DNA of 64,000 bases. Origin: Gammaproteobacteria bacterium (lineage in GTDB: Bacteria; Pseudomonadota; Gammaproteobacteria; JAJPIJ01). A model generated the notes under the pieces. The model saw nothing but the letters and a program-made list of their open reading frames with translations, did no database searches and was not told the origin of the DNA. Location: the NCBI GenBank assembly GCA_022071965.1, contig JAJVIQ010000019.1, positions 136,793 through 200,792 on the forward strand, written 5' to 3'. Both the position numbers and the translations under genes were made by a program. This document shows positions 2,878 through 20,654 of this stretch, piece after piece (position 1 is the stretch's first letter; every line of letters begins with the position of its first letter).

Positions 2878-2965
2878 GCCGAGATGGCGGAACCGGCAGA
2901 CGCAGCGGACTCAAAATCCGCCGGGGTAACCCCCCGTGAGGGTTCGACTCCCTCTCTCGGCACCA
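2878..2965 (+). tRNA. leuX-like: tRNA-Leu(CAA), class II with long variable arm, CCA encoded
   Basis: GCCGAGATGGCGGAACCGGCAGACGCAGCGGACTCAAAATCCGCC...GGTTCGACTCCCTCTCTCGGCACCA. The acceptor stem GCCGAGA pairs with TCTCGGC, and the anticodon loop CUCAAAA gives anticodon CAA. It closely resembles E. coli leuX. Confidence 0.9.
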
Positions 2966-3157: not shown

Positions 3158-4030
3158 ATGCCGTTGACAGTAGCCGCGATTAACCACGCCAGACCACGTG
3201 AGAAGGTCTACAAGCTCGCAGATGGTGGAGGCCTGTATCTTGAGGTCCATCCAACGGGCGCACGCTACTGGCGCTTGAAGTATCGCCACGCGAACAAAGA
3301 GCGTCGACTAGCAATTGGCGTATATCCCGATGTAACGCTCGCCGAGGCACGTACGGCGCGAGACAGTGCGCGCAAGCTCATCAAGAGCGGAAATGACCCG
3401 GTCGCGGTGAAGCGCGAGGTGCGCCGCAAAACCGAGTGCGAGGCGGCCAACACGTTCGAAATCATCGCCCGCGAATGGGTCGAGCACCAACGCGCACGCT
3501 GGACACCTGACCACGCAAGCACCGTCCTCCGGACCCTTGAGGCCAACGTGTTCCCAACCTTGGGGGCAAAGCCAATCACCAACATCACGGCGCCCGAACT
3601 GCTGGCGGCCATCCGCTCGGTTGAACGCCGCGATGCGCTGGAGGTTGCCTCCCGTGTGGCTCAGCGCTGCGGCGCGGTGTTCCGTTTCGCAATAGCGACG
3701 GGACCTACAACCCCGCTGCAGACCTTCGTGGCGCATTGAAGACAAGGAAGGTTACCCACCACCCCGCGCTCATGGCCAAGGACCTGCCGGAGTTCCTGGA
3801 TAACCTGGCTGCTTACGATGGCGATGAGCAGACTAAGAACGCCTTGAAACTCCTGATGCTAACCTTCGTCCGCACCGGTGAGCTTCGTGCCGCCGAGTGG
3901 AGCGAGTTCGACCTTGAGGGCGCGACTTGGCGCATACCGGCCGAGCGTATGAAGATGCGCGCACCTCACATCGTGCCGCTGTCGAAGCAGGCCGTCGAGG
4001 TCTTGAAGGCGCAGCAGGCACTTACCGGCC
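3158..4030 (+). pseudogene. int: P4-type tyrosine integrase, frameshifted and C-terminally truncated
   Basis: The N-terminus MPLTVAAINHARPREKVYKLADGGGLYLEVHPTGARYWRLKYR...RLAIGVYPDVTLAEARTARDSARKLIKSGNDP is the classic P4-integrase arm-binding domain. The reading frame breaks near 3712 at ...VFRFAIATG. The protein continues in the next frame (TYNPAADLRGALKTRKV...ELRAAEWSEFDLEGATWRIPAERMKMRAPHIVPLSKQAVEVL). Homology then ends near 4030, before the catalytic R..H..Y region. Confidence 0.75.
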
Positions 4031-4129
4031 TACCCGGGTTTCGAATTGTTGGCGGTTGGAAACCTGACAGCTCGGGAGCCTCCATAGCTAAACGCAAGAC
4101 GAATGGCACCAAGCCACCGCACCATCAAG

Positions 4130-4642
4130 ATGAACCGCGCCCCGGTGCTCACATTGTGGGCGGCCGTAGTGGCCGAGCGCTTGGGCTTCGACTGGGACGA
4201 GGCACTCACCATCGGTCGAGCCCTCGCCGGCCTGAACGCCTACGCCAAGGGCGTCTCCATCGGCCTGTTCCAGCCGACACCGAATGAGGTTAGGGAGCAG
4301 CGCCACAAGCTCCCCCCTGCGGAGACATTCACCGTCGACCTGCTGCATCGTGCGGTCCCGGCCGTCCATACCGGGCAGGGTGTGCGCGCACTGGACGAGG
4401 AGAAGCCCGCCGACCCGGCCAGCGTAAAGCAGTACCTGGAGGGCAAGTTCAAGGACGCCTTACCGGACGTGTACGAGGCTATGAAGACGCTTGCCGACGC
4501 CTACCCGCCAAGGAAACTCGCGGTAGAGGCCTACCACCTGTACGAGCAGTTCCGACCGGCCGTGCCCGCCGGGCAGCGTGGATGGGGTGCTGCCGGCGTA
4601 CTCGACCTCGACGCAATCAGAGGTCTGGCGCGGTTGGCCTAA
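4130..4642 (+). CDS. hypothetical protein (about 170 aa) of unknown function
   Basis: ORF 4103/4130..4642 (MNRAPVLTLWAAVVAERLGFDWDEALTIGRALAGLNAYAKGVSIG...). Its amino-acid composition looks coding. It is GC-rich, unlike the adjacent R-M genes. Its 3' end overlaps the res stop convergently by 26 bp. I recognise no family. Confidence 0.4.
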   Translation: MNRAPVLTLWAAVVAERLGFDWDEALTIGRALAGLNAYAKGVSIGLFQPTPNEVREQRHKLPPAETFTVDLLHRAVPAVHTGQGVRALDEEKPADPASVKQYLEGKFKDALPDVYEAMKTLADAYPPRKLAVEAYHLYEQFRPAVPAGQRGWGAAGVLDLDAIRGLARLA

Positions 4643-7600
4643 CATCCGCCGTTGCTGTCTCGGAGATCTGCGCCCCTACGTCACTTGCACGTTCCGCAAG
4701 CACGTACTGCCAGTAGCCGTAGGTTCCATCAGCATTCACTGCATTGGCCCACCGATGCGCCGCCTGCGCTTTCACGTCTTTCAGCGGGTCATACCCCTTC
4801 GTTTCAAATATCACAAACCGGTTGGATGTACCCTGCAGCCGGATGATGAAGTCGGGTATGTAGTCATGTGCCTGACCATCATGGAGATAAGGAATGGCAA
4901 ACCCGAGGTTGGCGTTCTTTACGAATGCTGAGACGTTGTCGTGAGTATCTATTGCGACAATAGCAGCCTGTTCCAGGCCGGAGTCGGCAACCATGAGGTT
5001 TAAATGACTCTTTTCAACTTGAACCACATTCTTGCTGGTCCAGAAATCGACTTCCGACGTGGTGCCCGGCCCGCGGTGCTTTTCAAACGACGGCAATTCC
5101 GCCGCCTCCCCTTGCATAACGTCCGGTTTAATGGCGGCGGTCAGTCGCTCGATGATCCAACCATAATAGGGGGATAGAAAGGCATCGAAGATGCTCGCGG
5201 GAGACAATGGCTTAACTCGCTCACGTAAATAACGGTCAACAATCTTCGCGATCTGCGGAAAAAGGGCGTGAGCTGGCGCTTCGCAGGAGGGTTGGGCGCA
5301 ATATTCTCGCGTCAGATCGCGCGCCATCTCAAACACCAGTGCCTGTAGGCGCTGGCCCGATCGGTAGGGATTGAGGTTCACGCTGACGATCTTTCCGGGG
5401 CCAAGCAACGAGTAGCGACCTTTGTTGCTTGGCACCCCGGCCTTCATTTCAACTTGTGGCGGGATTCTTACCGGATCCAGATCCAACGTTGCCACAGAGT
5501 TCCAATCAACGACAATACGATTAAGGATTTTTTGCCTGTATCCCATTACGCGAGGAAATTGAATTTCAAACTGCTTTTTCTGCGGAAGTGCATGGACGTG
5601 GAATCGCTTAGCGCGCGGTTGAGTAGGCGCACCCTGATTGGCCTTGAACGGAATGACCTCAAACGGCACTCCAAATATCTTCGCAACTTCCTCGCTGAGT
5701 AGCCCCGTGGTCTCGTCAATTTCGTAACTAGAACGCCGTAGCCCGCGACCCACCACCTGTTCGCACAGCAACTGCGACATGAATGGTCGCAGTCCGACGA
5801 TGTGAGTGACTGTGTTGCAGTCCCACCCTTCCGTCAGCATGCCGACGCTGACGATGCAGCGTATATCCCGACCCGGCGGGTGCGACGGGCGGCCGAGTTC
5901 TTTTGCCAGATCCTCGAAGCCATCGGGGTAAATTGGCCGCCCCGACCGATCGTTTGGCCAATTTACTTTGCCCACGGTGTCAAGCGTCAGCCGCATCCAA
6001 CGCATCTCGTCTGACTTCGCTTCATCGCTGTCTGTCTCGTGCACAACTTTGGTATCGACGCGAATTGTATGCGTCAACACGTCAGTGTTGCGTAGTTGCT
6101 CCAGCCGCGCCGACGCGATACCGGTTGGCGGTTTATCCTCTGCGAGCCACTCGTAGACTACCTTCGCGATTCGGGTGTTCTTGCAGACCAGAATAAACAC
6201 CGGCGGTCTTGGATCGTCAGTATTCCGGAGCCATTCCTTACGGGTCTGCTCCCACAACCCCCCCAACATGACTATCGGTGTGTATGCATACTGCAAGATT
6301 GCATCAGGTCTTGGATTGGCGCGCCGTCCACCACGCTGAGCAGCCGTCAGTTGAGGCAAAATCCAATGCCAGATGTTGAAGTACCCAGGAATCTCCTTGC
6401 CTGCCGTATCTCGCACCGCCAATTGCGGGATTTTCACCAGTCCCGACTCAATCGCGTCCGTCAACCCGAAATCGCTCACCACCCAAGGGAAGGTGCGATT
6501 GGTGTCCTGTCCGACCCGTCCGAGGTAATAGGGTGTCGCCGATAGATCCACACAGAAATTGATTCCTCGCAGCTTGTGAATACGGTCCAACCCGTCAATC
6601 CAGACAGTAGCTTCCTTGAAGAATTCGTCGATTTCCTCTTCATCGAATAAATCTTCCTCGCCCTCATCTGGCTCCGGTTTGCGGATGCGGTAGGCGTGAT
6701 GCGCCTCATCATTCAGCACGAGGATGTTTTTCTTTCCCCCAACCTCGCGCCCGAGTATTCGGTGAACGAGGGCCGTGTCGCTTTCAACGTACTTGCGCGA
6801 TTCGATGATTACTTTCTTCAGATTGCCGTCTATGTCGCACTCTTCCTCGATAATCTCAATCATTCCTGCATTAACCTGCCGCCGTAAATCCTCCAACGTC
6901 AGGTAGCGCGTGCCACGTGCCGTCGTCGACTTTTCTCCGATGGCGATCTTTTCCTTCACCCGTACCGGCTTGCCTGCCTTGGCAACCTTGGCGCTTGTCC
7001 CGCCAACTTGCACGGACTTCGGCTCGAATACGTGCCAGTTTGTGACTAGCACGCGCCCCTGCGTCATGAGCGGCATAAGGTGCTCAGGAATAAGGTCGCG
7101 GGTGCGGTAAAGACTCGCCTCGCCCGCCTCGGGATTCAACTCCGCCAAGCGGTTGCGGATGGTGACGTTGGGACAGACCACCAGCACCACATCGGAGAAC
7201 CGCCCGTCACTGCGATTGTTGAGCTTGTTAAGTATGCTCCACACGACCAACATGCCCATGACGGTCGTCTTGCCACTGCCAGTTGCCATCTTGCAGGCGT
7301 AGCGACGGAAGGCGCGATAGCCCTCGGCTCGGCGTTCCTCACTCATTTCATCCAGTGGCACATCGATACCTTGCAGGAAGTCCGACCGCGCCTCGGTGAG
7401 GAAAATAATCGTCTCCGCGGCTTCAAGCTGCGCGAAAAACAAACGATGCTTGCGTCCGTCGCGTCTCCAGTATTGAAGCAATTCTAATGAGGTGCGACTG
7501 ACACCGGGCCACTGCTGATCTCGCCACTCGCTGATCTGTTTTCGGACCTGATTTACCAACGTTAGATCTTGCCACTGCCCGCGCGCCTCATGTTCGCCAG

Positions 7601-7757
7601 CGTTGGATGTCCCCCGAGGTTCGCGATAGAAGTAACCGGCCGGACGGCGGCCTTTCCGCTCCTCTGGTGGTTCGCCTTCTGATATATACCAATATCGCGC
7701 CGGCTCCTCGTAGGGGCAGTTAAGGATTGGCTGCGGGACCTCGTAAGCCTCAGGCAC
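4617..7757 (-). CDS. res: Type III restriction enzyme Res subunit (SF2 helicase with C-terminal PD-(D/E)xK nuclease)
   Basis: 1046 aa. Walker A is CKMATGSGKTT and the DEAH box is LNDEAHHA. Helicase motif VI-like is QVVGRGLRR. The C-terminal YIPDFIIRL...FVIFETKG is a nuclease motif. It starts 2 bp after the mod stop. The region has visibly lower GC than its flanks. Confidence 0.85.
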   Translation of the reverse strand: MPEAYEVPQPILNCPYEEPARYWYISEGEPPEERKGRRPAGYFYREPRGTSNAGEHEARGQWQDLTLVNQVRKQISEWRDQQWPGVSRTSLELLQYWRRDGRKHRLFFAQLEAAETIIFLTEARSDFLQGIDVPLDEMSEERRAEGYRAFRRYACKMATGSGKTTVMGMLVVWSILNKLNNRSDGRFSDVVLVVCPNVTIRNRLAELNPEAGEASLYRTRDLIPEHLMPLMTQGRVLVTNWHVFEPKSVQVGGTSAKVAKAGKPVRVKEKIAIGEKSTTARGTRYLTLEDLRRQVNAGMIEIIEEECDIDGNLKKVIIESRKYVESDTALVHRILGREVGGKKNILVLNDEAHHAYRIRKPEPDEGEEDLFDEEEIDEFFKEATVWIDGLDRIHKLRGINFCVDLSATPYYLGRVGQDTNRTFPWVVSDFGLTDAIESGLVKIPQLAVRDTAGKEIPGYFNIWHWILPQLTAAQRGGRRANPRPDAILQYAYTPIVMLGGLWEQTRKEWLRNTDDPRPPVFILVCKNTRIAKVVYEWLAEDKPPTGIASARLEQLRNTDVLTHTIRVDTKVVHETDSDEAKSDEMRWMRLTLDTVGKVNWPNDRSGRPIYPDGFEDLAKELGRPSHPPGRDIRCIVSVGMLTEGWDCNTVTHIVGLRPFMSQLLCEQVVGRGLRRSSYEIDETTGLLSEEVAKIFGVPFEVIPFKANQGAPTQPRAKRFHVHALPQKKQFEIQFPRVMGYRQKILNRIVVDWNSVATLDLDPVRIPPQVEMKAGVPSNKGRYSLLGPGKIVSVNLNPYRSGQRLQALVFEMARDLTREYCAQPSCEAPAHALFPQIAKIVDRYLRERVKPLSPASIFDAFLSPYYGWIIERLTAAIKPDVMQGEAAELPSFEKHRGPGTTSEVDFWTSKNVVQVEKSHLNLMVADSGLEQAAIVAIDTHDNVSAFVKNANLGFAIPYLHDGQAHDYIPDFIIRLQGTSNRFVIFETKGYDPLKDVKAQAAHRWANAVNADGTYGYWQYVLAERASDVGAQISETATADVRPTAPDL

Positions 7758-7759
7758 GT

Positions 7760-10537
7760 CTACCGAGCCTCCTTCAGCGACTTCACGACCATTAACTCAT
7801 TGCCGCGGTCGTCGATGACTTTTACCGCCACTTGACCATGCTCGCCAGCTTCGAACGGTGCACTGACACTGCCGGCGAGATGTTCCCACACCGAGTCTTG
7901 GAACTCCCCTTTAAGCGCCCTCTTGAGGGAATCCCAAGCGCCTGTGCGGGGGAAAAATGCCTGGCAGACGTGAAAGCACAGGCCGTTGTAATCGGTGTCG
8001 AGGAACCAGGCCGGCACATCGTCACCTTTTCGCTGGTCCACCTCCATCGTCACGGGATCGAAAACATCCAGACCAAGCAATTTGACGGCATAGCACAATG
8101 GCTCATCCGCGACAGTCTTAACCTTGCTCACCTTGACCTCGGGAAGTCCACAGACGCTAAAGATCTGGCTGGAACGCATGTTCTTGAGCAAATCACCCAT
8201 GAGCAAATCGGGCGTTGCTTGCACGTACGTCGCGGGCACACCTACCGCCGCCTCGCACTTCTCGATCAGTTTTCGTGCGTCAGGCTGAATCGCAAAGCCG
8301 ATTACGTACAAGTAATCATAATGCTTGGCATGTGCCTCACGCGCCGCTTCGTAAACCAGTTTCTCGCTGACGGCACCACCCTCTGGTCCGAATACGATGG
8401 CAACAGGACGGCCGGATAAAGGCAACGTGCTGCTGTTCTCCTCGTCTGCGACCTGCAATGCCTCGTCAATCGATATCGGGCCTGGTATGTGCGCGACCTC
8501 AACAATCGCCTCAGCAGAAAGCGTGAGGGTCTTCGCTGGTGGGCGGACATTGCGCAGGGTGGCCGACTTACCGCCATCGATATGTAGCGCCGGCGAGCGG
8601 CGTAGCACTTCAAGCATGCGGTCGACGAAGCTGCCGTGCGACTCCGCCACGGTGGCGACGCCGGAATCCTCGACGCCGTCTCCCTCCCAGTCTATAGGCG
8701 TGGGGATGGTCGCCTCGACACAGAAGGGACCGGTGACTCTCGTGATTTTGTCATTAGTCTCTGGTCGGTCCACCAGCACCTCTTCAGCGGGCGGTTCGTC
8801 ATTGGCGATACTCCCGAGCGTAATATGCGGCACGATACCGCCGACCTCCTCGCCCTTGCTGTTCTGTCTCCGCTTGTAGACGAAACCGCCGGCAGGGCCG
8901 CGGTCGCACTCCTTCAGTTCGTAGTACGGGAACGTGGCAGTGAGCAGCCGTTGCCTCGCCAAAGCCAGTGGGACTCGGCTTGTATCAACGGTTATCCAGC
9001 GCCGCCCCCACTGTTCGGCGACATAAGCTGTGGTGCCGCTACCGCAAGTCGGATCCACGACAAGATCACCTGGGTCTGTGGTCATCAGCATGCAGCGTTG
9101 TATGACCTTGGCCGTTGTCTGAACCACATATGACTGCTCTTCCGTGAAGCTCCCGGCCCCGCTATCGGTCCATACGTTGTTCAAATACGCCACCGGGAAA
9201 TCATCGAGAAAAGATGCCGCCCGAACGTTATCCCCTACGGGGAAAACACGTCCAAGTTCCGCAAGACGCTGGAGACCACTCATGGTGAACCTCCAATGTT
9301 TGTTGTGCGGAACTCGGTATGAGCGACCCTTAAACTCGAAGACTTCGTCCGAGTTCTTGCTCGCGCCCTGAGCATATAGGGCCATACTCTGAAACAGGCG
9401 AATCCCCTTCGGTACCTTGTCGGGGTGCTGTTGCTCACCCATAGAAACTGTCTTGACGTCGCCAGCCGAATCAAAGTAGTACCGGAATGCTGCCAATCCT
9501 GCAGGCGCCTGATCCCGAGGAAAGAACAACTGCCGATATTTCATCCGCGACGGGTCTTTGGAGTACCAAAGAAGGTAGTCGCACACTGTCGGTAGACGTC
9601 CTGTATCTAACCCTCCCGTTTTCTTGAATGAAATTTGGCTCACGAACGATTCCGCTCCGAAAATTTCATCCATTACCTCGCGAACATGATGCACATTCTC
9701 ATCTGAGATCTGCACGAATATGCTGCCGGACGGTGCAAGTAAGTCGCGGGAGAGCAATATCCGGTCGCGCAAATAGGTGAGATAGGAGTGCAGGCCCAAC
9801 TCCCAGGTGTCGCGGTAGGCCTTAACCATCTCCGGCTCGCGCGTCATGTCCTCGTCGTCATTGTGGGCTACGTCGCGCCTGCGCACGAATGGTTGGAAAT
9901 TACTCCCGAATTTCACCCCGTAGGGCGGGTCCATATATATCATCTGCACCTGCCCTCCCATGCCCTCATAGTGCAGAAGCGAGTTCATCGCTGCGAGCGA
10001 GTCCCCGAGCACCATACGGTTTGTCCAGCCGTTCATGTGCTCGTAGGCGCGGAGCACCTGTTCGTGAATCGGATGCTGCCGGTCCCCGAACAGGTCAAAC
10101 AGGTCGATCTGCCTATCGCGCTTGTGGCCTTTCAGCGTTTCGAGGATGGCGCGGGTGCTTAGTCGTTCATGGATGAACAGCGGCAATGTCGGCACGTCGA
10201 ATGACAGGCGCTCGGCCTTGCCAGCCCAGTTAAGGAAGGGCTTGCTGAAAGCGCGAAGTTTCTCGGCGGCGGCCTTGGCCTCGCCCAAATCCTTGGCTTC
10301 AAGAATCTGGCGAATCAGCGTCTCACCTTGCTCCCTCGTCGGGTTCTGTCCATCCCAATCCAACGCCGGAGACAGTGAAGAATCGAATCGGTATGTTTTT
10401 GGTGGCTTCTTCTTCCTGAACTGTGCCTGTGTGCCGACCTCTGGGCGCAGTAGCAATGAGGCGGTAGGGTGACTGTAATTTTCAGTTTGTTTTCCTGGTT
10501 GGCCAGTAGCTTTCTCTCGGCCCTTTTTCCTCGGCAT
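7760..10537 (-). CDS. mod: Type III R-M Mod subunit (beta-class N6-adenine/N4-cytosine DNA methyltransferase), unusually long
   Basis: Motif IV IYMDPPYGVKFGSNF precedes motif I VVDPTCGSGTTAYVAEQWGRRWITVD, a circular permutation typical of Type III Mod. There are about 400 aa after motif I. The ORF is open to 10612 (alternative starts at 10612 and 10570). The ATG at 10537 (MPRKKGREK) follows a G-rich RBS. Confidence 0.85.
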   Translation of the reverse strand: MPRKKGREKATGQPGKQTENYSHPTASLLLRPEVGTQAQFRKKKPPKTYRFDSSLSPALDWDGQNPTREQGETLIRQILEAKDLGEAKAAAEKLRAFSKPFLNWAGKAERLSFDVPTLPLFIHERLSTRAILETLKGHKRDRQIDLFDLFGDRQHPIHEQVLRAYEHMNGWTNRMVLGDSLAAMNSLLHYEGMGGQVQMIYMDPPYGVKFGSNFQPFVRRRDVAHNDDEDMTREPEMVKAYRDTWELGLHSYLTYLRDRILLSRDLLAPSGSIFVQISDENVHHVREVMDEIFGAESFVSQISFKKTGGLDTGRLPTVCDYLLWYSKDPSRMKYRQLFFPRDQAPAGLAAFRYYFDSAGDVKTVSMGEQQHPDKVPKGIRLFQSMALYAQGASKNSDEVFEFKGRSYRVPHNKHWRFTMSGLQRLAELGRVFPVGDNVRAASFLDDFPVAYLNNVWTDSGAGSFTEEQSYVVQTTAKVIQRCMLMTTDPGDLVVDPTCGSGTTAYVAEQWGRRWITVDTSRVPLALARQRLLTATFPYYELKECDRGPAGGFVYKRRQNSKGEEVGGIVPHITLGSIANDEPPAEEVLVDRPETNDKITRVTGPFCVEATIPTPIDWEGDGVEDSGVATVAESHGSFVDRMLEVLRRSPALHIDGGKSATLRNVRPPAKTLTLSAEAIVEVAHIPGPISIDEALQVADEENSSTLPLSGRPVAIVFGPEGGAVSEKLVYEAAREAHAKHYDYLYVIGFAIQPDARKLIEKCEAAVGVPATYVQATPDLLMGDLLKNMRSSQIFSVCGLPEVKVSKVKTVADEPLCYAVKLLGLDVFDPVTMEVDQRKGDDVPAWFLDTDYNGLCFHVCQAFFPRTGAWDSLKRALKGEFQDSVWEHLAGSVSAPFEAGEHGQVAVKVIDDRGNELMVVKSLKEAR

Positions 10538-10762
10538 AACTACCCCCCAACTGAAGATTTCCTTGTTCATCACCGACGGTCCCCAGTCGGTTGCCAATTG
10601 TTCACGACACATAGAGTACAGGTGACTGCCTCAGATTCCCAAGCTTGGCAGCGAAGTCAATCGCGCCACTTAGGCTTCTGCTGCAACTAGATGCCGACGG
10701 CCACTGTACCGCTCGCCCATCCCGCCCCAAGCTGGTTCAATTTCCGCCCAACGGCGGTTGAG

Positions 10763-10776
10763 TCTCTCGGCACCAA
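10763..10776. repeat. attR-like copy of 14-bp direct repeat TCTCTCGGCACCAA
   Basis: Exact match to the tRNA-Leu 3' end (2953..2966), in the intergenic region just beyond the mod start. A given 14-mer is expected about 5e-4 times by chance in 64 kb. Confidence 0.55.
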
Positions 10777-10996: not shown

Positions 10997-12042
10997 TCAT
11001 GCGTCGGTGTCCTCTGGCACCAGCATCCACACGCGCTTCAGCGGCAGTTCGGCCTGTATCTCCGCCGGCAGTCGCTCATAAGTCCGGTAAATCGCCTCGA
11101 CGAGATCGCGGCTCTCCCATAACCGCACCGTGAAATGGCCCTGCCGAGCCTCACTCAGCACTGACCCTTTGAAACCGCCCCAACACACGAGCAAGCCTTG
11201 CTCCGCCTTGAAGGTCTGCATCGAGCCCTGCAACGTCCGGTAAATCGTGACGTCAGCGGGACTGTTTTGCGACTTCACCTGCACGCAGAGTCGCGGGACG
11301 TCAAGGCCGAGGGGACCGCGTCCACCTAGGATGTCGACACCTCCATCCGCCCCGGGAGGCGACACTTTTGTTACCCAACCGTCGGCCTGTAGCACCGCAT
11401 CCACGAGGCTCGCTAACGCGTGACCCGCAAACCGTGTCTGGATATGTGCCACGATTTGGTCATGGGCGAGCTGCGCGAGATCGGGAACTTCCTCGGGTTC
11501 GAGTGTGGGTGGGGCCGCGCCCGCCTTTTTCGGCTTGCCGAGCGCTACCGAGGGGCCGGGATCCGGCTTGCCGGCCAGCACCGCTGCGACACGCCGCTCC
11601 GCGTCGTTGCGTGAGATGTTGCAGACCGTCATGAAGGCGCCGAACGAGTGCAGCAGGTCTTGCTCGAACGCGGTGCGCGGCACGTCCGGCCGCAACCATT
11701 CCACCGCTCGGGTATGGCGCAAATCGCTGCCGACCTTCTGGTATCGGTAAGGCCCTTTCACACGCCCGATGGCAATCTGTGATGTCAACTTGCGTGGTAG
11801 CACGACGAGGTCGCCCTCGTTCATCGCAATCACAAATGCCCCGTGATATTGCCGACAGCGCGCGGCTTGGCACCCGGCAGGCTGGCTTCGACGATCTTGA
11901 AGATGGCATCGTAATCCTTCGCCCCCTCCAGTGATGGGATGTGCCGGAAACCGATAATGGCGAGATTACCTTCTAGAGCGGCCTCCTCGTCCTCCCCCAG
12001 CCTGCCCGCTCGCGTCAGATAGACCTTTGGTACCTCACTCAT
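10997..12042 (-). pseudogene. mrr-like: Mrr-like (Type IV) restriction endonuclease, split by a frameshift
   Basis: The upstream 70-aa ORF (MSEVPKVYLTRAGRLGEDEEAALEGNLAIIGF...AKPRAVGNITGHL) matches the N-terminus of Mrr-cat family restriction enzymes. The downstream 278-aa ORF continues the same family (MNEGDLVVLP...) and carries the Mrr catalytic core GGVDILG...LCVQVKSQ. The two ORFs are joined by an ATGA start/stop overlap at 11830-11833. Confidence 0.65.
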
Positions 12043-12169
12043 TGCATTCCTCCGGAAGTTTCAAATAGCAAAGCATAAATAGGTACCAGTTGAAGGAACT
12101 CGGGTGGCGCTTGGAGAGCGGATCGTTTGCGAAGACCAAACCGTGCGCAAGGAGGCTACCCGATGAAAG

Positions 12170-12420
12170 TAAGTGTACTGGAGATGCCGTGGCCCGTCTG
12201 GCGGCAACTGCAGCGCGTGGTGAAGAAGTCGCGAGACGTCGACCATGTATGATGTGCGCCGAGGTTGCTGAGGCTGCACGTACTGGGCGGTAATGTGAGC
12301 GCGGCCGCGCAGGTGTGTGGCGCCTCACGCGGGGCACTGCGGCATTGCCCAACGCTCTACGAGAGCGGCGGTAAGCAGCCCTCGCACCGAAGTGGCGTGG
12401 GCTCAAAAATATTAGCTCAG
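12170..12420 (+). pseudogene. IS630/IS481-like transposase N-terminal HTH remnant
   Basis: Frame-broken peptide ELPWPVWRQLQRVVKKSRDV ... RLLRLHVLGGNVSAAAQVCGASRGALRHCPTLYESGG resembles the N-terminal HTH of IS630/IS481-family transposases. No DDE domain follows. Confidence 0.35.
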
Positions 12421-12425
12421 AGATC

Positions 12426-13112
12426 ATGCGCTACGCCATAGCCACAGGCCGTCGCAAGGACGACCCGGCCGCGGCTTTGAAAGGAGCATTCAAGACCCGA
12501 ACAGCTGAGAATCACCCCCACCTCGAACGCGCCGACCTGGGGCCATTCCTGCGCAAACTCCATGACTACGCTGGTCGGCACGAAACACGGATCGCCGTAC
12601 AACTGCTGATGCTGACTGCCGTTCGGACTGGCGAGCTGCGGGCCGCCAAGTGGACCGAGATAGATTTCAGCGCCAAAGAATGGAGCATCCCGGCGGATCG
12701 GATGAAGATGCGGTCACCGCACGTCGTTCCGCTCTCCCGGCAGGCCATTCGATTGCTGGAAGAACTGAAGACCTACACCGGCTACAGCGAGTACCTGTTC
12801 CCCAACCATGGCAAGCACCCGCACATGAGCGAGAACACGGTCAACAAGGCACTGCACGGCCTCGGTTACAAGGGCGAGCTCGTGGGCCACGGCTTTCGCG
12901 CCACATTCAGCACAATCGCCAATGAATCCGGGAAGTTCAATCCGGATGCCATCGAGCGGTCGCTGGCGCATAAGGACAAGAACCCTGTTCGGGACATATA
13001 CAACCGCGCCAAGTACCTGCCGGAGCGACGGAAGCTGATGCAGTGGTGGGCAGACGATCTCGATGCTGCCCAGAATGGAGCGAAGATTGTGCGCCTCACA
13101 CGACGTGATTAG
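12426..13112 (+). pseudogene. int: P4-type integrase fragment (catalytic domain only, N-terminal half missing)
   Basis: Begins MRYAIATGRRKDDPAAALKGAFKTR..., corresponding to the middle of P4-type integrases. It includes HVVPLSRQAIRLL, HGFRATFST and a C-terminal RD-containing tail. There is no arm-binding domain. Confidence 0.75.
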
Positions 13113-13250: not shown

Positions 13251-13889
13251 ATGAATAAGGCGCCCCTCCGCACCTACGTCTATATCGACGGGTTCAATTT
13301 TTACTACGGGCAAGTCAAAGGCACCCCCTGGAAGTGGCTCGATCCCGTCGCCCTGTTTCGGAAAGTCCTCCGCCCTCAAAACGACATTCGCAAGATCAAG
13401 TATTTCACCGCACGAGTCGAACCCACACCCTACGACCCTGACGCGAACGTTCGACAGGACACATACCTCAGGGCACTGACGGCTCACTGCCCAAACGTAG
13501 AGCTACATTTTGGTCACTTTCTCCGTCATCAGATTTTCATGGAGAACGCCAATCCACCGCCTGGCAAGGTCTGCGTTTGGAAGAACGAAGAGAAGGGCTC
13601 CGACGTAAACCTCGCGCTGCACCTGCTGAATGATGCCTGGAGGGATGAGTACGACTGCGCCGTCGTCGTCTCGAATGACTCCGATCTTGCTGAGGCACTT
13701 AGAATGGTTCGCGAACAGAACGGCAAAGTCATCGGTGTGGTTACTCCAGGCGCACCGAAACGGAGAACATCATGCCAACTCGCCAAGTATGCTCACTTCA
13801 TCAGCCCGATAAGAAAGTGGGCTCTGCAGGCCAGTCAGCTACCTTCCCCGATTCCTGGAACGACGATCAGGAAGCCGGATACCTGGTAG
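13251..13889 (+). CDS. NYN-domain (PIN-like) ribonuclease family protein
   Basis: 212 aa. Motifs YIDGFNFYYG, GSDVNLALHL and VVSNDSDL are typical of the NYN/LabA-like nuclease fold. A GAGGG RBS precedes the ATG. Confidence 0.75.
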   Translation: MNKAPLRTYVYIDGFNFYYGQVKGTPWKWLDPVALFRKVLRPQNDIRKIKYFTARVEPTPYDPDANVRQDTYLRALTAHCPNVELHFGHFLRHQIFMENANPPPGKVCVWKNEEKGSDVNLALHLLNDAWRDEYDCAVVVSNDSDLAEALRMVREQNGKVIGVVTPGAPKRRTSCQLAKYAHFISPIRKWALQASQLPSPIPGTTIRKPDTW

Positions 13890-13948
13890 CTTCACAGTTG
13901 CCTCGGTGCAGAGCCTGGGGGTGCGGCCTTGCTGCTCGTGCGCATGCG

Positions 13949-14037
13949 GATTCCGGTCGATGCCGGGCAGTGATTCCGGTCCATGCCGGCACGGATTCCG
14001 GCTGATGCCGGCAGCGATTCCGGCGCATGCCGGCAGG
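13949..14037. repeat. four tandem 22-bp direct repeats (GATTCCGGYNNATGCCGGSASN), consistent with IS21-family multiple terminal repeats
   Basis: Repeats at 13949-13970, 13972-13993, 13994-14015 and 14016-14037, lying 60 bp upstream of the istA fragment. No spacers, so not CRISPR. Confidence 0.7.
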
Positions 14038-14099
14038 TTCGGTGGGACGGGTAACCAACGCTACCGTAGCGCCTTTTCCAACGTGGAGAGGGGGCGACG

Positions 14100-14669
14100 G
14101 TGGCGCAAACGAGGTTACCCATGCGAAAGATCCGCGAGGTATTGCGACTCAGGTATGAGCACGGCCTGAAGGACGGCCAGATCGCCGCGGCCATTGGCTC
14201 GGCGCGCTCCACGGTGCAAGAGTGCGTGCGCCGGGCACAGCAGGCAGGGTTGAGCTGGCCGCTGCCCGAGGGGTTGGACGAGCTGGCGCTGCAGTCGCTG
14301 TTGTATCGGCGCGAGGTGCCGCTGTCGCGCACGCCGGCACCGGATTTCGCCAGGCTGCATGCCGAGCTCAAACGTCCCGGGGTGACACGGCTGCTGCTGC
14401 GGCAGGAGTACAAGGCCGAGCGCCCCGATGGCTGGCAGTACAGCGTGTTCTGCGATCAGTACCGTCGCTGGCTGGCGCGTCAGGATGTGGTGCTGCGCCA
14501 GCAGCACGTGCCCGGCGAGAAGCTGTTCGTGGACTACGCCGGGCAGACGGTGGCGGTCATCGATCGGCACACCGGTGAGAGCCGCCCCGCGCAGATCTTC
14601 GTGGCCGTGCTCGGCGCCTCCAGCCACACCTATGCCACTTGTTCTTCGTGGACGGCGGGGCGGCAATGA
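14100..14669 (+). mobile_element. istA: IS21-family transposase IstA, N-terminal fragment (truncated)
   Basis: MRKIREVLRLRYEHGLKDGQIAAAIGSARSTVQECVRRAQQAGLSWPLPEGLDE... matches the IstA N-terminus. The ORF is interrupted after about 180 aa, where an IS5-family fragment begins on the opposite strand. Confidence 0.75.
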
Positions 14670-15105
14670 TGGTGGCATCGACGATCGTGCCGGTGCCGAT
14701 CTTGACCCCCTGCGCCTCCAGGTGACGATGCACCTGCTGGAACAGCTTCACGCCCAGGTTGTGCTCCTCCAGCAGATGGCGGAAGCGCAGCACCGTGGAT
14801 TCATCCGGCGCCGGCGCATCGGCCAGATCCACCCCGGCGAAGCGGCGCATCGAGGCCGAATCGTACAGCGCCTCTTCCACGCCCGGATCCGAGAGATTGA
14901 ACCATTGCTGCAGGAAGTACACCCGCAGCATCATCTCCAGTTCCTTGGGCGGGCGACCGTCGCCGGCCTTCGGGTATTTCGGCGCAATCAGCCTGCACAG
15001 CTCGGCCCATGGCACGATGCGCTCCATCTCGGCCAGAAACTTCGCCCGCTTCGTCGTCCTGGAGAACTTCTCAAAGCCCGTGCCCAGGGTCAGCTGTTTG
15101 CTCAA
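14557..15105 (-). mobile_element. IS5-family (IS1182/IS5-like) transposase N-terminal fragment
   Basis: MSKQLTLGTGFEKFSRTTKRAKFLAEMERIVPWAELCRLIAPKYPKAGDGRPPKELEMMLRVYFLQQWFNLSD is the hallmark IS5-family N-terminus. The DDE domain is missing. An imperfect inverted repeat at about 15140-15180 may be the IS end. Confidence 0.65.
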
Positions 15106-15251
15106 TGCCGTCTCCGATGTGTTTCGGTGTGCCTACCGATCAGATCGTGGACTTTTGCAGAGGTTCCTTAGACTGCTTCTAGGCAGAACCTCTTCTGGCC
15201 GCATCGATCAGCGGTAAGCAATTCCCGCAAGAAAGAGCGACAGATCGTGCC

Positions 15252-16028
15252 TTACCCTGCTTGCCTCAGGTTCGCGCCGAGGACATCGCTGACCAGTTCG
15301 CCCCCGCCTTCGCGAATGGCATCGTGCAAGATCACTCTTACTTCGCGTAGAAACTCCTCGGAGTGCGCGTCAAGAGCCGGTCCAGGCACAGGCGCGGAAT
15401 TCTCGTAAATCATGCGAATGACGCTAGCGCGGTCATAGGTGGACCCGCGTCCGCGATAGTCAAACGCTCTCATCCAGTCCCTGCGCGGGACGCGCAACAG
15501 CTTCTGTTCCACATAGCCGTGCAACCGAGCGAAAACAGCGCGCTGGACCTGGGACAGCGCGGCGTCGGCTTCCGGCTCGCTCGGCGCACGCGGCTGCCAG
15601 CGGATCGGCTTGTCGAGAAACTTAGTAATCGATTCCGACAGGCGCGCCACGAGATCCGCGACGGGCTTAAGATCCTTGTACTCGCCCTCATTGATGTCGA
15701 GCACCACGCGGCGGTTCATCGCCTTGACTTCTGCCCAATGCGCCTTGCGGACAGTGGACGATCCCGTAAACAGGATGGCGTTCCAGCGCGCATGAAACTC
15801 GGCAGCAGCCGCTTGGATGGCGAGAACGAGTCCAGCCGTATCGTAAACGGGACAGACTTCCGCAACGTCCGCCGGCATGATGGCGGCTTCGCAGAAATCC
15901 ATCAGCTTGAGCAACTCGCTTACGGGTCCGCGCTGCTTCTCTGTCAGGGGGCGGTTGAGGAAACCGAGCATGAAGCAGCGTTCATCAAGCCCGCGTTCAA
16001 TCGCCCGGCGGTGGTGCTCCGAGATCAT
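15252..16028 (-). CDS. hypothetical protein, 258 aa, unknown function
   Basis: The ORF has a balanced, coding-like composition (MISEHHRRAIERGLDERCFMLGFLNRPLTEKQRGPVSELLKLMDFCEAAIMP...). The opposite-strand ORF is Arg-rich junk. I recognise no family. Confidence 0.45.
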   Translation of the reverse strand: MISEHHRRAIERGLDERCFMLGFLNRPLTEKQRGPVSELLKLMDFCEAAIMPADVAEVCPVYDTAGLVLAIQAAAAEFHARWNAILFTGSSTVRKAHWAEVKAMNRRVVLDINEGEYKDLKPVADLVARLSESITKFLDKPIRWQPRAPSEPEADAALSQVQRAVFARLHGYVEQKLLRVPRRDWMRAFDYRGRGSTYDRASVIRMIYENSAPVPGPALDAHSEEFLREVRVILHDAIREGGGELVSDVLGANLRQAG

Positions 16029-16200
16029 GCGCTACGCCATTGCCACCGGCCGGCGTCGCGACGACCCTGCAGCCGCTCTCAAGGGAGCGTTCCGGACACG
16101 CGCGGCCACACACCTCCCCGCCCTGTCACGCACCGAACTCGGTCCCTTCCTGCGGGCGCTGGTCGAATACCCCGGCCGTACCGTGCGGGTGGTAAAGACG
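16027..16200 (+). pseudogene. int: third P4-type integrase remnant (short internal fragment)
   Basis: MRYAIATGRRRDDPAAALKGAFRTRAATHLPALSRTELGPFLRALVEY... begins at the same residue as the fragment at 12426. Homology is lost after about 55 aa. Confidence 0.55.
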
Positions 16201-16311
16201 ATATCCAAGGACCTCGGATCGTCTCATTACGAGCCATATTGGCCGTTGACCCGATCATTCGACGCATGGATACGCGGGAGGACGCCCGAATCGATGGCTC
16301 TGGAAGTTCGT

Positions 16312-18756
16312 TCAAAACGTGGCGCACAAGGTCCGCCACATCACCTCGGCAGGCAGCGGTTCGCTGAACAGATAGCCCTGTGCTATATCGCAGTGGTTGG
16401 CACGCAGGAAATCGCGCTGCAGTTCGTTTTCGACGCCTTCGGCCACCACCTCCAATCGTAGCTGCCGCGCCATTGCCAGGATGGTCTGGACGATGACCAC
16501 GCTGTTGCCGTCCTCGGGCACGTCCTTGATAAAGGAACGATCGATCTTCAGCCTATCTAACGGCAGATGCCTCAGCATGCTTAGAGAGGAATATCCGGTC
16601 CCGAAGTCGTCGATGGCGATCGAAATCCCTAGCTTGCGTAACTCGCGTAGATGACTGGAATCCTGGCCCAATGCTTGCAGCGTACTTTCGGTGATCTCCA
16701 GTTCAAGCAGGTACGGTGGAAGTCCGCTGTCCTGAAGGGCCTCGATGACAATCCGATCGAAGCTACGATTGATGAGCTGTCGTGCCGACACATTGACTGC
16801 CAGTCGCGTCGGAGGCAGGCCATCTCGATGCCACTGCGCTACATCGCGACAGGCCTGGTCGAGCACAAAACGTCCGATCGGATCGATGAGCCCGTTCTCC
16901 TCTGCGATGGGAATGAACCTCACGGGCGGGATGAACCCACCTTGCGGCTGCGGCCAGCGCACCAGAGCCTCGACCGCGGCTACGCGCGCTGTGGCGAACT
17001 CCACCTGCGGCTGATAGTAAACGCGGAACTCCTTCTGTCTTAGCCCTCTGCGGATCCCCTGTTCAAGGGTCACGCGCTCCTTGGCTCGATGTGACATCTC
17101 CGGGGTGTAGAAACAGTATTGATTTCGCCCGATCGATTTTGCCGTATACATCGCGGTATCCGCCGCGCTTAACAGGCCTGCAATCGTCTCGCCGTCATTC
17201 GGATAAACCGACAGGCCCATGCTGGCAGTGATTGTCACTGTTTCGTTGCCCACGTCCATAATCTCCGAGATCGCCTCCTGCAGCTTGCGAGCGATCTTGG
17301 CAACATCCTCGGCGTGCGAAATGGAGTCGAGCAGGATCACGAACTCGTCGCCACCGAGTCTCGCTGCCGTATCGCCGCGCCGCAGGGCCGACTTGACCCT
17401 AACCGTTACCGTCTTAAGGACGGCGTCCCCAGCGGCGTGCCCGAGCGTATCGTTGATGAACTTGAACTCATCCAGATCCAGATAGATGAGACCGAATATC
17501 CCCTTCGCACGAGCCGCGCGCTGAATCGTCTGCTCAAGCCTATCGCTCAACAGCAAGCGGTTCGGCAGACCGGTCAGGGCATCGTGATGAACGAGGAAGT
17601 TGAGTTGCTCCTCTGTCTGGCGGATGGCGCTGATATCGGAGAACGCGATTATGTAGCGCAATACCGCCCCCTGCTTGTCGCGAACAACGGCGGTGCTGCA
17701 CCAGATCGGAAACACGCGATCCCCCTTGTGTCGGCAGAGCATTTCGCCAGACCAGCTGCTCTTCGTGTCGGTGATGACCAGCGGCGACACCCGATCGTCC
17801 GGTGAACGCGTGTGCAGAAGGTCGTGCATTCTTTGTCCGACCACCTCGGTCGCGGTGTATCCCGTGATCCGACTGAAGGCGGGATTGATGGAGAGAATCT
17901 GCTGTGCGGCATCCAGCACGAGAACGCCCTCCGCGATGCCATCATATATGGCTGCCGCCTGTCGCAACTGCTCCTGCGCACTCATGAGCGCGGTAATGTC
18001 ACGAATGACGCCGATCAGCCGCAGAGCGTTCCCGCGATGCTCGAAGCGTACGGACGCCTGAACCTCCAGGTAATGGAGTTCTCTGCCATGCATTCTCCGG
18101 TATACGCGACGCACCGCATGGCCCGCAGCCTTCGCGGCCTCCAATAACTTTCCAACCGGCTCACGATCCTCCGGGTGTAGATCCGCGATGAAGCACTCGC
18201 CGGCAACAGCCTGGACGTACAAAAATCCTCTCTCGGGGATACCGCCTCCGTCATGCACCAAATTGCCGGTTGCAGGATCCCATTCCCACACGCTCATCTC
18301 GGCCGCCGACAGAGCCAGCCGCAGACGCTCTTCGCTCCGCGCACGCGCCGATTCAGCTGCATGTCGCGCCAGGGCCATTTGCAACGTGCCGTGCAATTCA
18401 CGCACCGTACAAGGCTTCACGAGATAGCCGAAAGGGGAGGTGGTCTTGGCCCGCTCAATCGTCTCATTTTCGGCGTAGGCAGTGAGGAAGATTACCGGAG
18501 TGCGGAAGTTCTTCTGGATGTAGTCGGCAGTGTCGATGCCGTCGAGCATGCCCTCCAGATGGATGTCCATGAGTACCAGGTCCGGGTTCCCATTTTCGAT
18601 CTGATGGATCGCCTGCTCGCCGGTAGCCGCCATTCCACTCACAAAATAGCCCAGAGTCTCGAGTTGCTGCTTCAGGTCCAGCGCGACGATACGCTCGTCC
18701 TCCACCAGCAATATGTTCGTCCGCGCATTCATCGATTTTCTCCGCTGATGGGACAC
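16312..18756 (-). CDS. response regulator with REC, PAS, GGDEF and EAL domains (c-di-GMP turnover)
   Basis: 814 aa. The N-terminal REC domain is LLVEDERIVALD...LMDIHLEG. The GGDEF motif RLGGDEFVILL is intact. EAL motifs EALVRW and DDFGTGYSS are present. Confidence 0.85.
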   Translation of the reverse strand: MSHQRRKSMNARTNILLVEDERIVALDLKQQLETLGYFVSGMAATGEQAIHQIENGNPDLVLMDIHLEGMLDGIDTADYIQKNFRTPVIFLTAYAENETIERAKTTSPFGYLVKPCTVRELHGTLQMALARHAAESARARSEERLRLALSAAEMSVWEWDPATGNLVHDGGGIPERGFLYVQAVAGECFIADLHPEDREPVGKLLEAAKAAGHAVRRVYRRMHGRELHYLEVQASVRFEHRGNALRLIGVIRDITALMSAQEQLRQAAAIYDGIAEGVLVLDAAQQILSINPAFSRITGYTATEVVGQRMHDLLHTRSPDDRVSPLVITDTKSSWSGEMLCRHKGDRVFPIWCSTAVVRDKQGAVLRYIIAFSDISAIRQTEEQLNFLVHHDALTGLPNRLLLSDRLEQTIQRAARAKGIFGLIYLDLDEFKFINDTLGHAAGDAVLKTVTVRVKSALRRGDTAARLGGDEFVILLDSISHAEDVAKIARKLQEAISEIMDVGNETVTITASMGLSVYPNDGETIAGLLSAADTAMYTAKSIGRNQYCFYTPEMSHRAKERVTLEQGIRRGLRQKEFRVYYQPQVEFATARVAAVEALVRWPQPQGGFIPPVRFIPIAEENGLIDPIGRFVLDQACRDVAQWHRDGLPPTRLAVNVSARQLINRSFDRIVIEALQDSGLPPYLLELEITESTLQALGQDSSHLRELRKLGISIAIDDFGTGYSSLSMLRHLPLDRLKIDRSFIKDVPEDGNSVVIVQTILAMARQLRLEVVAEGVENELQRDFLRANHCDIAQGYLFSEPLPAEVMWRTLCATF

Positions 18757-20654
18757 ATGAAGTCAATCCGATACGCGGTTCCCTCACCCTCCTGCAGGAC
18801 GATGGCAAGTCTTGCCTGATCGGCCAGCAATGGCACGATCTGCAGACCCAGTGAAGGTGACTTTCCGAGTGCTATGTTCGGCGGCAATCCCACGCCGTCA
18901 TCGGCAATCAACAGGCGCCGCGGCCTGCCGCTCTCGACCTCAAGCCTGATGTGAATGCGGCCGTCCCGATTGCACGGGAATGCATGCTGTAGGGCATTCG
19001 ACAAGAGTTCGTTCACGAGCAGCCCGCAGGGAATCGCGCGCTGCAGCTCCAGGTGGGCCTCAGGCAGAGCCGCGTCGATCACGATGCGCGGTACTGCGGT
19101 GTCGGGCATTGAGCTGCGAAAGACATTCTCAACCAGACGCCGCAGGTATTCGCCGAGATTCACGCGCGAATGTTCCTTGCGCTCGTAGAGCAGCTCATGC
19201 GTCAAGGCCATCGCCGCGATACGGTTGCGCGATTCAGTGAGGGCCGCTTTGACAACTTCGTCCCGGCTGCTGTCCGCCTGCAGGCTGAGCAGACTGGAAA
19301 TCACCTGCAGATTGTTTTTCACGCGGTGATGTATCTCGTCGAGCAGAAGGGTTTTCTCCTTGAGTGCGGCCTCCACGTGCTCTTGCGCCTGCCGGCGCAG
19401 CGTGATGTCCGTGATTGCGGCGAGCACGGCAGGACCGGCACCCGTGTCGATGAGGCTCAGTCCGACCTCCACGGGAAACTCGGTACCGTCCTTGCGGATC
19501 GCGTACACGTCACGGCCGGCTCCCATTTGGCGGGTTACGGGATCGCGGAAGAACTCCGCGCGCAGACCTACATGCTCGCTGCGCGCGCGCTGCGGCACCA
19601 ACATTTCAATCGACTTGCCCAACAGCTCGTCGCGCATATAGCCGAACAGCCGCTCCGCCTGGTTGTTGACTAACAATATGACTCCACTTTGATCGGTTAT
19701 AAGCATGGAGGTGGGTGCCGCAAGCACGGCGTTTCGGAAACGCTCCTCGCTATCACGCAGGGCTTTTTCGGTGCGTTTGAGATCGCTGATGTCGGCGTAG
19801 GTGCCCAGCATTCCGCCGGCCTGGCCGTGCTGATTGAGCAGAGGCACCTTGGAGATGGACAGCCACACCTGAGCGCCTTCGGCGTCGAGCCTTTCTTCGA
19901 CAACATTGAGCATCGGCTTACGAGAGTCGATCACCCGTGCACGGCTGTCGGCAAGAGACTCGGCGATGGAGGCGCGGGCGGGAATGTCGGTGTCGACCAG
20001 TCCAACGACGTTGCTTCTGCGGACATCGCGTCGAAACGCGCGGTTGGCGCCGAGGAAACGGCCGTCGAGGTCCTGCCAAAAGATTGGCTGCGGTATGACG
20101 TCAATTATCGACCGCAACCAGTGCTCCGAAGCGATTGCCCGATCACCCTGTTTGGTCAGTTCATGCATGACGCCGATCTGCTCGGCAGCAAGGGATAATG
20201 CGTCTACGCAGCCACGACAGTCCTGTCGCGGCTCACCATCCAAAACGGCGAGGAAACCCACCGATCTGCCTCTCTCTTCGAGGATGGCGACGCTGGTCAG
20301 AAAGCGCATCGCGCCGTCGCTGCCTTCCGCAAGCTCGCGAAAGCGCGGATCGGCAAGGGTATCTTTGACAATCAAAGGGACATCCGCCTGCGGTGCATGA
20401 CATGCAAGCAGCCGGACTGCGGCAGAGGTCGACGCGACTCCATGACCCGCCTCCAGCCCGCCTAGACCCTCTAGGCCGAGGCGTACGTACGCCCTCGCCA
20501 CGCGGCAGAGCCGCGCCGACAACCGTACAGCACTTTGCAGAAATCGCCGCCGAACCTCGGCGCCGTGCGTTGTTTGGACGAAGGGTTCAGTGCCGTTATC
20601 CGCGACCATGGCTTGCGCCCAATCAGACATATACGATCGCAGCATTTCCACCAA
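18729..20654 (-). CDS. sensor histidine kinase, HisKA_2/HWE-type, with GAF and PAS domains
   Basis: 641 aa. The H-box EIHHRVKNNLQVISSLLSLQ is HisKA_2. A C-terminal HATPase region (LLVNELLSNALQHAF...DDGVGLPP) is present. It overlaps the downstream response-regulator gene by 28 bp. Confidence 0.8.
   Translation of the reverse strand: MVEMLRSYMSDWAQAMVADNGTEPFVQTTHGAEVRRRFLQSAVRLSARLCRVARAYVRLGLEGLGGLEAGHGVASTSAAVRLLACHAPQADVPLIVKDTLADPRFRELAEGSDGAMRFLTSVAILEERGRSVGFLAVLDGEPRQDCRGCVDALSLAAEQIGVMHELTKQGDRAIASEHWLRSIIDVIPQPIFWQDLDGRFLGANRAFRRDVRRSNVVGLVDTDIPARASIAESLADSRARVIDSRKPMLNVVEERLDAEGAQVWLSISKVPLLNQHGQAGGMLGTYADISDLKRTEKALRDSEERFRNAVLAAPTSMLITDQSGVILLVNNQAERLFGYMRDELLGKSIEMLVPQRARSEHVGLRAEFFRDPVTRQMGAGRDVYAIRKDGTEFPVEVGLSLIDTGAGPAVLAAITDITLRRQAQEHVEAALKEKTLLLDEIHHRVKNNLQVISSLLSLQADSSRDEVVKAALTESRNRIAAMALTHELLYERKEHSRVNLGEYLRRLVENVFRSSMPDTAVPRIVIDAALPEAHLELQRAIPCGLLVNELLSNALQHAFPCNRDGRIHIRLEVESGRPRRLLIADDGVGLPPNIALGKSPSLGLQIVPLLADQARLAIVLQEGEGTAYRIDFMCPISGENR

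Follow-up and report, generated by a model that had tools for sequence, protein, structure and literature searches.

A 258-residue open reading frame in a tRNA-linked genomic island is most likely a functionless remnant of a dynamin-like GTPase gene

The 258-aa open reading frame (ORF) examined here, which lies in a 64-kb window (the whole stretch of 64,000 nucleotides that was analysed), is most likely a recently truncated and functionless remnant of a gene for a stand-alone dynamin-like GTPase of ~770 aa; we put the probability of this reading at about 85%. About the last third of the parent protein (residues ~519-776) is retained, together with the native 3' end and stop codon of the gene. 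The parent family is widespread and uncharacterised, is without a Pfam, NCBIfam or PADLOC model, and represents a distinct, previously undescribed architectural variant of the dynamin superfamily.

Coding status and surroundings of the ORF

A sequence-only reading of the window had described the ORF as an intact and clearly coding gene, without a recognisable family, inside a mosaic of defence and mobile genes. The ATG-initiated minus-strand frame is confirmed (Table 1). Its start codon (16028-16026) shares 2 bp with the ATG of a plus-strand integrase-like stub (16027-16029), as had been noted, and IS debris is indeed found on its other side in the form of a DUF772/IS5-type fragment. Restriction-modification (R-M), Mrr, NYN, integrase and IS pieces surround the ORF, which agrees with the mosaic setting that had been proposed.

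The description as coding also holds. ORF residues 8-250 align with residues 519-762 of the 776-aa family member P0049 at 73% identity (E = 1e-130), and the conserved residues of the stalk region are kept. On a profile of the family C-terminal region the ORF scores 296 bits, ranking 36th in a comparison with 100 intact members that had been left out of the profile (median 294, range 263-308 bits). No internal stops and no frameshifts are present across the 250 codons of the remnant. Judged by this conservation, the ORF is evidently a true, conserved coding sequence. An identical database entry from the same organism is listed as a hypothetical protein of a Gammaproteobacteria MAG, and the best of the other relatives among the 45 found in the first search reach up to 77% identity. 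The sequence-only reading had held that a lack of conservation in other genomes, combined with no expression support, would point to a spurious ORF; homologs are in fact widespread. A search of plasmids with region 13900-16320 gave no match.

Searches of Pfam, NCBIfam and PADLOC with the 258-aa ORF returned no family match, and the PHROGs search returned a single insignificant one (E 0.24). The claim that the ORF belongs to no family is thus correct for these collections. Structurally it is not, since the ORF, as modelled, is a dynamin-type stalk domain (see below).

Signals that could support expression were also sought. No promoter-like site was found in 15000-16500, and inspection by eye of the bases 5' of the ATG showed no GGAGG-like Shine-Dalgarno sequence. 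One weak terminator-like hairpin is located at 16219-16203 and does not rise above chance expectation. The GGDEF/EAL gene immediately upstream is the only plausible source of read-through transcription into the remnant.

Table 1 Features of the window around the remnant and across the island.
Feature	Position	Strand	Basis or remark
tRNA-Leu(CAA)	2878-2965		site of the island
Integrase A	3158-3703 + 3709-4029		frameshifted, 3'-truncated
Unassigned 179-aa ORF	4103-4642	plus	no Pfam match
Type III-like res/mod pair	4617-7757 and 7760-10612		
Mrr-family nuclease	10997-11833		
Integrase fragment B	12417-13103	plus	aa 170-398 of P0316 type, 72% identity
NYN-domain gene	13251-13889		
IS5-type transposase fragment, DUF772 domain	14557-15105	minus	3' side of remnant; PF05598, E 1e-23
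258-aa ORF, as called in the sequence-only reading	15252-16028	minus	ORF list and sequence; stop codon 15252-15254, ATG 16026-16028
Family-derived part of the ORF, 3' remnant of the ~770-aa GTPase gene	15252-16007	minus	P0049 residues 519-776 (stalk-like helical domain)
Rearrangement junction, 5 nt 'gcccg'	16003-16007		fits both parents
First 7 codons, MISEHHR, including the ATG	16008-16028	minus	fortuitous; antisense of integrase-derived DNA
Integrase stub C, internal 59-codon piece of a P4-type tyrosine integrase	16003-16179	plus	tblastn; Phage_int_M, E 6e-7
Response-regulator/PAS/GGDEF/EAL gene	16312-18756	minus	Pfam; immediately upstream of remnant
HWE-type histidine kinase gene	18729-20654	minus	Pfam

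Truncation and rearrangement junction

Full-length members of the family consist of an N-terminal domain, a G domain and a stalk over ~740-790 aa, an architecture that the ORF does not have. Motifs G1-G4 all lie upstream of residue 519 and are therefore absent, so that no dynamin GTPase domain is present in the ORF. Searches of the 64-kb window by tblastn with N-terminal parts of the family and with full-length P0049 found no other piece; the N-terminal part has been lost from the window. The ORF is therefore not intact, covering only residues ~519-776 and taking its start from the antisense strand of an integrase.

Family similarity begins at ORF residue 8 and ends abruptly at nt 16007 (…RAIERGLDERCF). 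The MISEHHR codons that precede it are unrelated to the parent family. The plus strand opposite them encodes the integrase residues ARRWCSEIM, and the ATG of the ORF is the antisense of the integrase codons …E-I-M…; an in-frame stop stands two codons 5' of this ATG (upstream translation '...VAMA*RMISEHHRRAIER'). Stub C encodes ARRWCSEIMRYAIATGRRRDDP…EYPGR, with 95% identity to aa 165-223 of the 399-aa integrase P0316 in tblastn, and is cut at both ends. A full P4-type tyrosine integrase has arm-binding, central and catalytic domains (~395 aa), but what is recognised in stub C is confined to the end of the Phage_int_M domain, and the stub is a fragment and not a gene.

Because family homology reaches 16007 and integrase homology starts at 16003, the junction is placed at the 5 nt in between, whose compatibility with both parents reflects either microhomology or chance. 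Across the junction, two Logan contigs from different runs (L007 and L008, short-read assemblies) agree with the window at 100% identity. Both end at window position 15144, at the IS fragment, which was taken as a repeat boundary. Since the two contigs were assembled independently, the junction is not an assembly chimera.

The island mosaic

Beyond the NYN gene, the island continues with IS fragments, the remnant, stub C, the GGDEF/EAL gene and the HWE-type kinase gene. GC content is 54-63% over roughly 3-22 kb and 66-72% in the rest of the window, and the GGDEF/EAL and HWE-kinase genes, which lie past the last integrase stub, still belong to this low-GC tract. At 10763-10776, in the interval that separates the Type III-like mod gene from the Mrr gene, the 3' end of tRNA-Leu(CAA) recurs as an exact 14-nt copy, which may be an attR remnant that bounds the first island (integrase A and R-M) of a tandem array. 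It is the only match; no such copy was found near the ORF (~16 kb). Upstream of a peroxiredoxin gene and the tRNA-Leu, a 486-aa ORF (622-2082, plus) has no Pfam match at E<=1e-3 and is overlapped by a 347-aa antisense ORF.

Breakage of the integrase genes follows a similar pattern throughout the island. All three are broken nearly alike, B being present from aa 170 and C from aa 165, with the frameshift of A at aa ~180-185. Fragment B is 5'-truncated within 5 codons of the stub C breakpoint. Fragments B and C have an identical 20-nt stretch, GAGATCATGCGCTACGCCAT, at 12420-12439 and 16021-16040, and are only ~73% identical downstream of it. A metagenome scan with this 20-nt sequence was uninformative because its matches were almost all EF-G-type genes with the same peptide, SEIMRYAI. 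The shared breakpoint region could be due to chance or to a recombination-prone site in P4-type integrase genes.

Two further ORFs of the mosaic border on integrase pieces. A 130-aa ORF (12035-12427, minus) starts with 'MISE…' because its ATG is the antisense of integrase fragment B; it has no Pfam match, is low-complexity and Arg/Ala-rich, and is probably fortuitous. The unassigned ORF at 4103-4642 starts just past the end of integrase A homology (~4029) and so may also be junction-derived.

Discovery and spread of the parent family

A first word-indexed search with the 258-aa query recovered just 45 relatives, all fragmentary or frameshifted, and missed the thousands of ~770-aa proteins to which the query is ~70% identical; taken alone it would have suggested a small orphan family. 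Many of these relatives are 310-417 aa long and extend at least 170 residues further N-terminally, with the motifs LVLLDGEGLGH and FTHFD. In the metagenomic loci L001 and L002/L003, an upstream ORF with the Walker A motif MVGTTGAGKTSLL runs into the homologs via frameshifts whose positions differ. The full-length family was found with a frameshift-corrected 778-aa protein that was rebuilt from L002 and used as the query. This search returned >3,800 proteins, the best 120 of which are almost all 716-807 aa long and without a Pfam domain. An exhaustive HMMER search of 1.84 billion cluster representatives yielded 1,202 clusters at E<=1e-3 (390 at E<=1e-30), typically of 740-780 aa, which puts the size of the family at 1,200 clusters at least, at 50% identity.

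A scan of one genome per species located 69 loci in many phyla, cultured strains included, and with few exceptions the genes there have their full length. Alpha-, Beta- and Gammaproteobacteria, Acidobacteriota, Nitrospirota, Planctomycetota, Chloroflexota, Cyanobacteria, Firmicutes, Actinobacteria and Verrucomicrobiota are represented, among others, and the distribution is patchy across >10 phyla. Intact members occur, for example, in Rhizobium leguminosarum USDA 2370, Methylocystis sp. H62, Sphingorhabdus arenilitoris and Paenibacillus sp. SAF-068. A few source annotations read "predicted GTPase", and a literature search found no paper describing a ~770-aa P0049-like family. The sequence-only reading had suggested that the window might hide something undescribed. 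This is true of the parent family, an undescribed dynamin-like GTPase that is often near defence genes, but not of the copy in the window.

Homologs without the N-terminal ~100 residues were observed in Rhodococcus and Dietzia (L070, L072 and L075). Their synteny is conserved, with adjoining GlfT2-type galactofuranosyltransferase genes, whereas the context of the family is hypervariable elsewhere; these actinobacterial homologs may be a chromosomal, housekeeping-like subfamily.

Architecture and dynamin affiliation

An alignment of 91 full-length members reveals invariant columns at G123, G128 and K129 (G1), T155 (G2) and D414/G417 (G3). A G4-like motif, which reads T-H-x-D, is nearly invariant (T477, H478 and D480 in >=90% of these members). 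The proteins begin with a small beta-beta-beta-alpha domain of ~65 residues. The G domain that follows is interrupted between G2 (T155) and G3 (D414) by an insert of ~260 mostly helical residues, and the C-terminus is a helical stalk with variable tails of low confidence. No hydrophobic or transmembrane-like segment was found in the family, the maximum Kyte-Doolittle value in a 19-residue window being 1.15.

Sequence models do not place the family in the dynamin superfamily, by either a Dynamin_N match or a significant profile match to a solved dynamin. Matches to Roc, MMR_HSR1 and Dynamin_N all fall below the curated thresholds (11.7 bits for Dynamin_N, PF00350, against a cut-off of 27), and NCBIfam small_GTP gives 15 bits on full-length members against a cut-off of 42.5. 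When the family profile was compared with PDB sequences, only generic GTPases (Der, 8.7e-6) and EHD4 (1.6e-3) were recovered. The affiliation is instead apparent at the level of structure: the whole protein has fold similarity to solved dynamin-family structures, and a helical stalk/bundle domain of the kind found in the superfamily is present. The stalk is modelled confidently on its own, and the top structural matches of this predicted structure are the SynDLP and MxB stalk structures.

The N-terminal domain was examined separately. Comparison of the ~65-aa profile with PDB sequences gave no support for a DNA-binding fold. An integrase-type arm/AP2-like DNA-binding domain was considered and gained no support from hhalign against the arm domain of the window integrase either (probability 0.15%). 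Nucleic-acid binding by the N-terminal domain is a guess, made from its beta-beta-beta-alpha topology alone.

Genomic context of intact members

Conservation of the neighbourhood, which the sequence-only reading had proposed as a check, was assessed around intact family genes. Clustering of the flanking ORFs within 6 kb at 66 loci detected no neighbour family in more than 4 loci, and the nearest sizeable neighbours fall into 118 different Pfam families; a conserved partner gene is thereby ruled out. The recurrent neighbours include AbiEi (5), SMC_N/AAA_23 ATPases (4), HTH proteins, PDDEXK nucleases, helicases, AbiEii-type AAA_21, ResIII and methylases. In a qualitative sampling of defence neighbourhoods, family genes often stand beside R-M, Abi, Shedu-like and HEPN/Toprim genes and integrases. 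In L005/L006 the copy follows guaA and is accompanied by a 416-aa ORF, an MmeI-type methyltransferase and a PIN gene; in L004 it adjoins a 1,298-aa methyltransferase, AlpA and ArdC. The copy of L002/L003 is found a short distance downstream of a co-directional integrase and precedes a 701-aa ORF and the gene of a HEPN_Toprim_N protein. Behind the copy of L001 come a fragment of a Shedu-like SduA_C gene and a ResIII helicase. The copy of L012 is a lone insertion among housekeeping genes.

Since the neighbours are diverse and none is conserved, the family is a stand-alone and horizontally mobile gene, located frequently, although not always, beside defence or mobile genes. The family may conceivably be an undescribed single-gene dynamin-like immune or anti-mobile-element module, with an N-terminal domain that possibly binds nucleic acid and with the window copy as a relic, but we consider this doubtful and propose it only tentatively.

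Interrupted copies and other remnants

Some copies are interrupted. The genes of L001 and L002 are otherwise full length and are frameshifted at different positions (~1090-1150 and ~5760-5800, respectively). L002 and L003, from two JGI samples, have identical split calls (385 aa + 334 aa), which points to a shared frameshift. The gene of L013 can be aligned over its whole length in a single frame, although the gene caller divided it into two ORFs (486 + 204 aa). These interruptions reflect either sequencing error or real pseudogenisation.

Other remnants begin, like the one in the window (residue 519), near the start of the stalk. That of L009/L010 (about 7874-8672) starts at aa ~512-526 and abuts an IS5 transposase, with a frameshift near its start in L009 and two 223-aa stalk-remnant ORFs in L010. 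The remnant of L014 (5708-6358) begins at aa 563 and directly adjoins a different integrase fragment, which lies next to a tRNA. These remnants have the lowest C-terminal profile scores of the set.

Origin and function of the remnant

An illegitimate rearrangement fused the GTPase gene at codon ~519, head-to-head, with the middle of a P4-type integrase gene. A single inversion with breakpoints in an adjacent integrase gene and at codon ~519 could have produced this head-to-head junction, a geometry suggested by the intact gene of L002/L003 because it is located downstream of a co-directional integrase. Later deletions would then have removed the reciprocal inversion product. With the N-terminal domain and the whole GTPase domain upstream of codon 519 lost from the window, the residual stalk coding sequence is extended by the 7 accidental codons and their accidental ATG.

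Without a G domain, the remnant would be incapable of the nucleotide-dependent functions of the family. The lack of sequence decay indicates that the event is evolutionarily recent or that the piece is still under constraint. We favour a recent event and a non-functional product, because the start is accidental, neither a promoter nor a Shine-Dalgarno sequence was seen and the G domain is absent, and also because comparable remnants differ in breakpoints and partners and look more decayed. It is unlikely, in our view, that a stalk-only product is instead expressed (by read-through or from an unrecognised promoter) and is functional, for example in modulating or poisoning a full-length dynamin-like protein. 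Such a product would fit the undecayed sequence with its mid-range profile score among intact members, the preserved ATG-initiated frame, and the apparently intact two-component/c-di-GMP operon upstream on the same strand, from which only a chance-level hairpin separates it. Stalks form the oligomerisation interface in dynamin-family proteins, and this one is modelled confidently by itself; the remnants of other genomes, which also begin close to this domain boundary, could be a hint that a stalk on its own is tolerated or useful. However, the ATG and first seven codons are an accident of integrase antisense DNA, no promoter-like site or GGAGG-like sequence was seen, and no full-length partner is encoded within the 64-kb window, although a paralogue of full length may lie elsewhere in the genome. 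The other remnants, moreover, have different breakpoints and partners, a frameshift in L009 and the lowest scores, as expected for decay. Even more speculative is the idea that stalk-only relics persist by interfering with full-length dynamin-like proteins.

The sequence-only reading had named the ORF a prime candidate, noting that orphan ORFs in such islands are frequently novel genes of anti-phage or toxin-like kind. An intact, self-contained 258-aa gene of this kind would suit an island with Type III R-M, an Mrr-family nuclease, a NYN-domain gene, integrases and IS fragments, and would agree with the absence of a curated family match. It is nevertheless very improbable: every well-assembled relative is ~770 aa long, with the ORF matching only the last third, the shorter relatives that the first search recovered derive from the long gene by frameshift or truncation, and the homology boundary coincides with the rearrangement junction. 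What had been taken for a candidate is the 3' third of a longer gene, with an accidental start and the entire GTPase domain missing. Least probable is that the ORF is spurious or stems from an assembly chimera. GC-rich DNA (here ~60%) commonly contains long accidental ORFs, and many overlapping ORFs were listed for the window, but the similarity to homologs at E = 1e-130 with conserved residues kept, the profile score, and the identical junction in the two independently assembled read sets (L007/L008) refute both.

As an ordinary truncated cargo gene in a decaying tRNA-linked island, the remnant is a false lead and a low priority when genes are chosen for assays of phage defence or toxicity. 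It has value indirectly, as tracing it uncovered a large and uniform dynamin-fold GTPase family for which Pfam, NCBIfam and PADLOC hold no model.

Comparison with known dynamin-type systems

The island resembles other decaying tRNA-linked islands: it is located at tRNA-Leu, its three integrase genes are all broken, and it contains IS fragments and further truncated genes, to which the ORF adds one more piece of truncated cargo. In contrast to the usual remnants of such islands, the one described here is undecayed, with its open frame kept through an accidental ATG.

The closest known systems include the stalk domains of Mx/MxB, Drp1 and Mgm1. BDLP (Nostoc), SynDLP, Campylobacter DynA/DynB, IniA and mitofusin/Fzo1 have only 10-16% sequence identity to the family. 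Compared with these bacterial and mitofusin-class dynamin-like proteins (DLPs), the family adds the ~260-residue insertion between G2 and G3, the ~65-aa N-terminal domain and the T-H-x-D form of G4, and no hydrophobic segment resembling a membrane anchor was found in it; the window copy differs further in being without a G domain altogether. To our knowledge, the G domain is required in every dynamin-type activity that has been studied.

Dynamin-like proteins are tied to antiviral defence in animals, as exemplified by Mx. In bacteria, the dynamin-like protein DynA of B. subtilis has been linked to phage defence (mBio 2022, PMC8844932). [quoted passage not shown] 2022, bioRxiv 10.1101/2022.05.11.491447). 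The PADLOC models for LeoA and LeoBC do not match the window ORF. LeoA matches full-length members weakly over short stretches (E 1e-4 to 6e-3, 14-19 bits) and one N-terminal half weakly and partially over a short stretch (E 4e-6, 24 bits), and the other PADLOC matches of full-length members (LeoBC, mad3 and mad8) are marginal. Unlike the multi-gene Leo-type operon, the parent family is encoded by a single gene without a conserved neighbour in 66 loci. Since dynamin-like proteins of the Mx, DynA and Leo types are all tied to antiviral defence, this single-gene variant would be a reasonable candidate to test, using an intact member and not the fragment.
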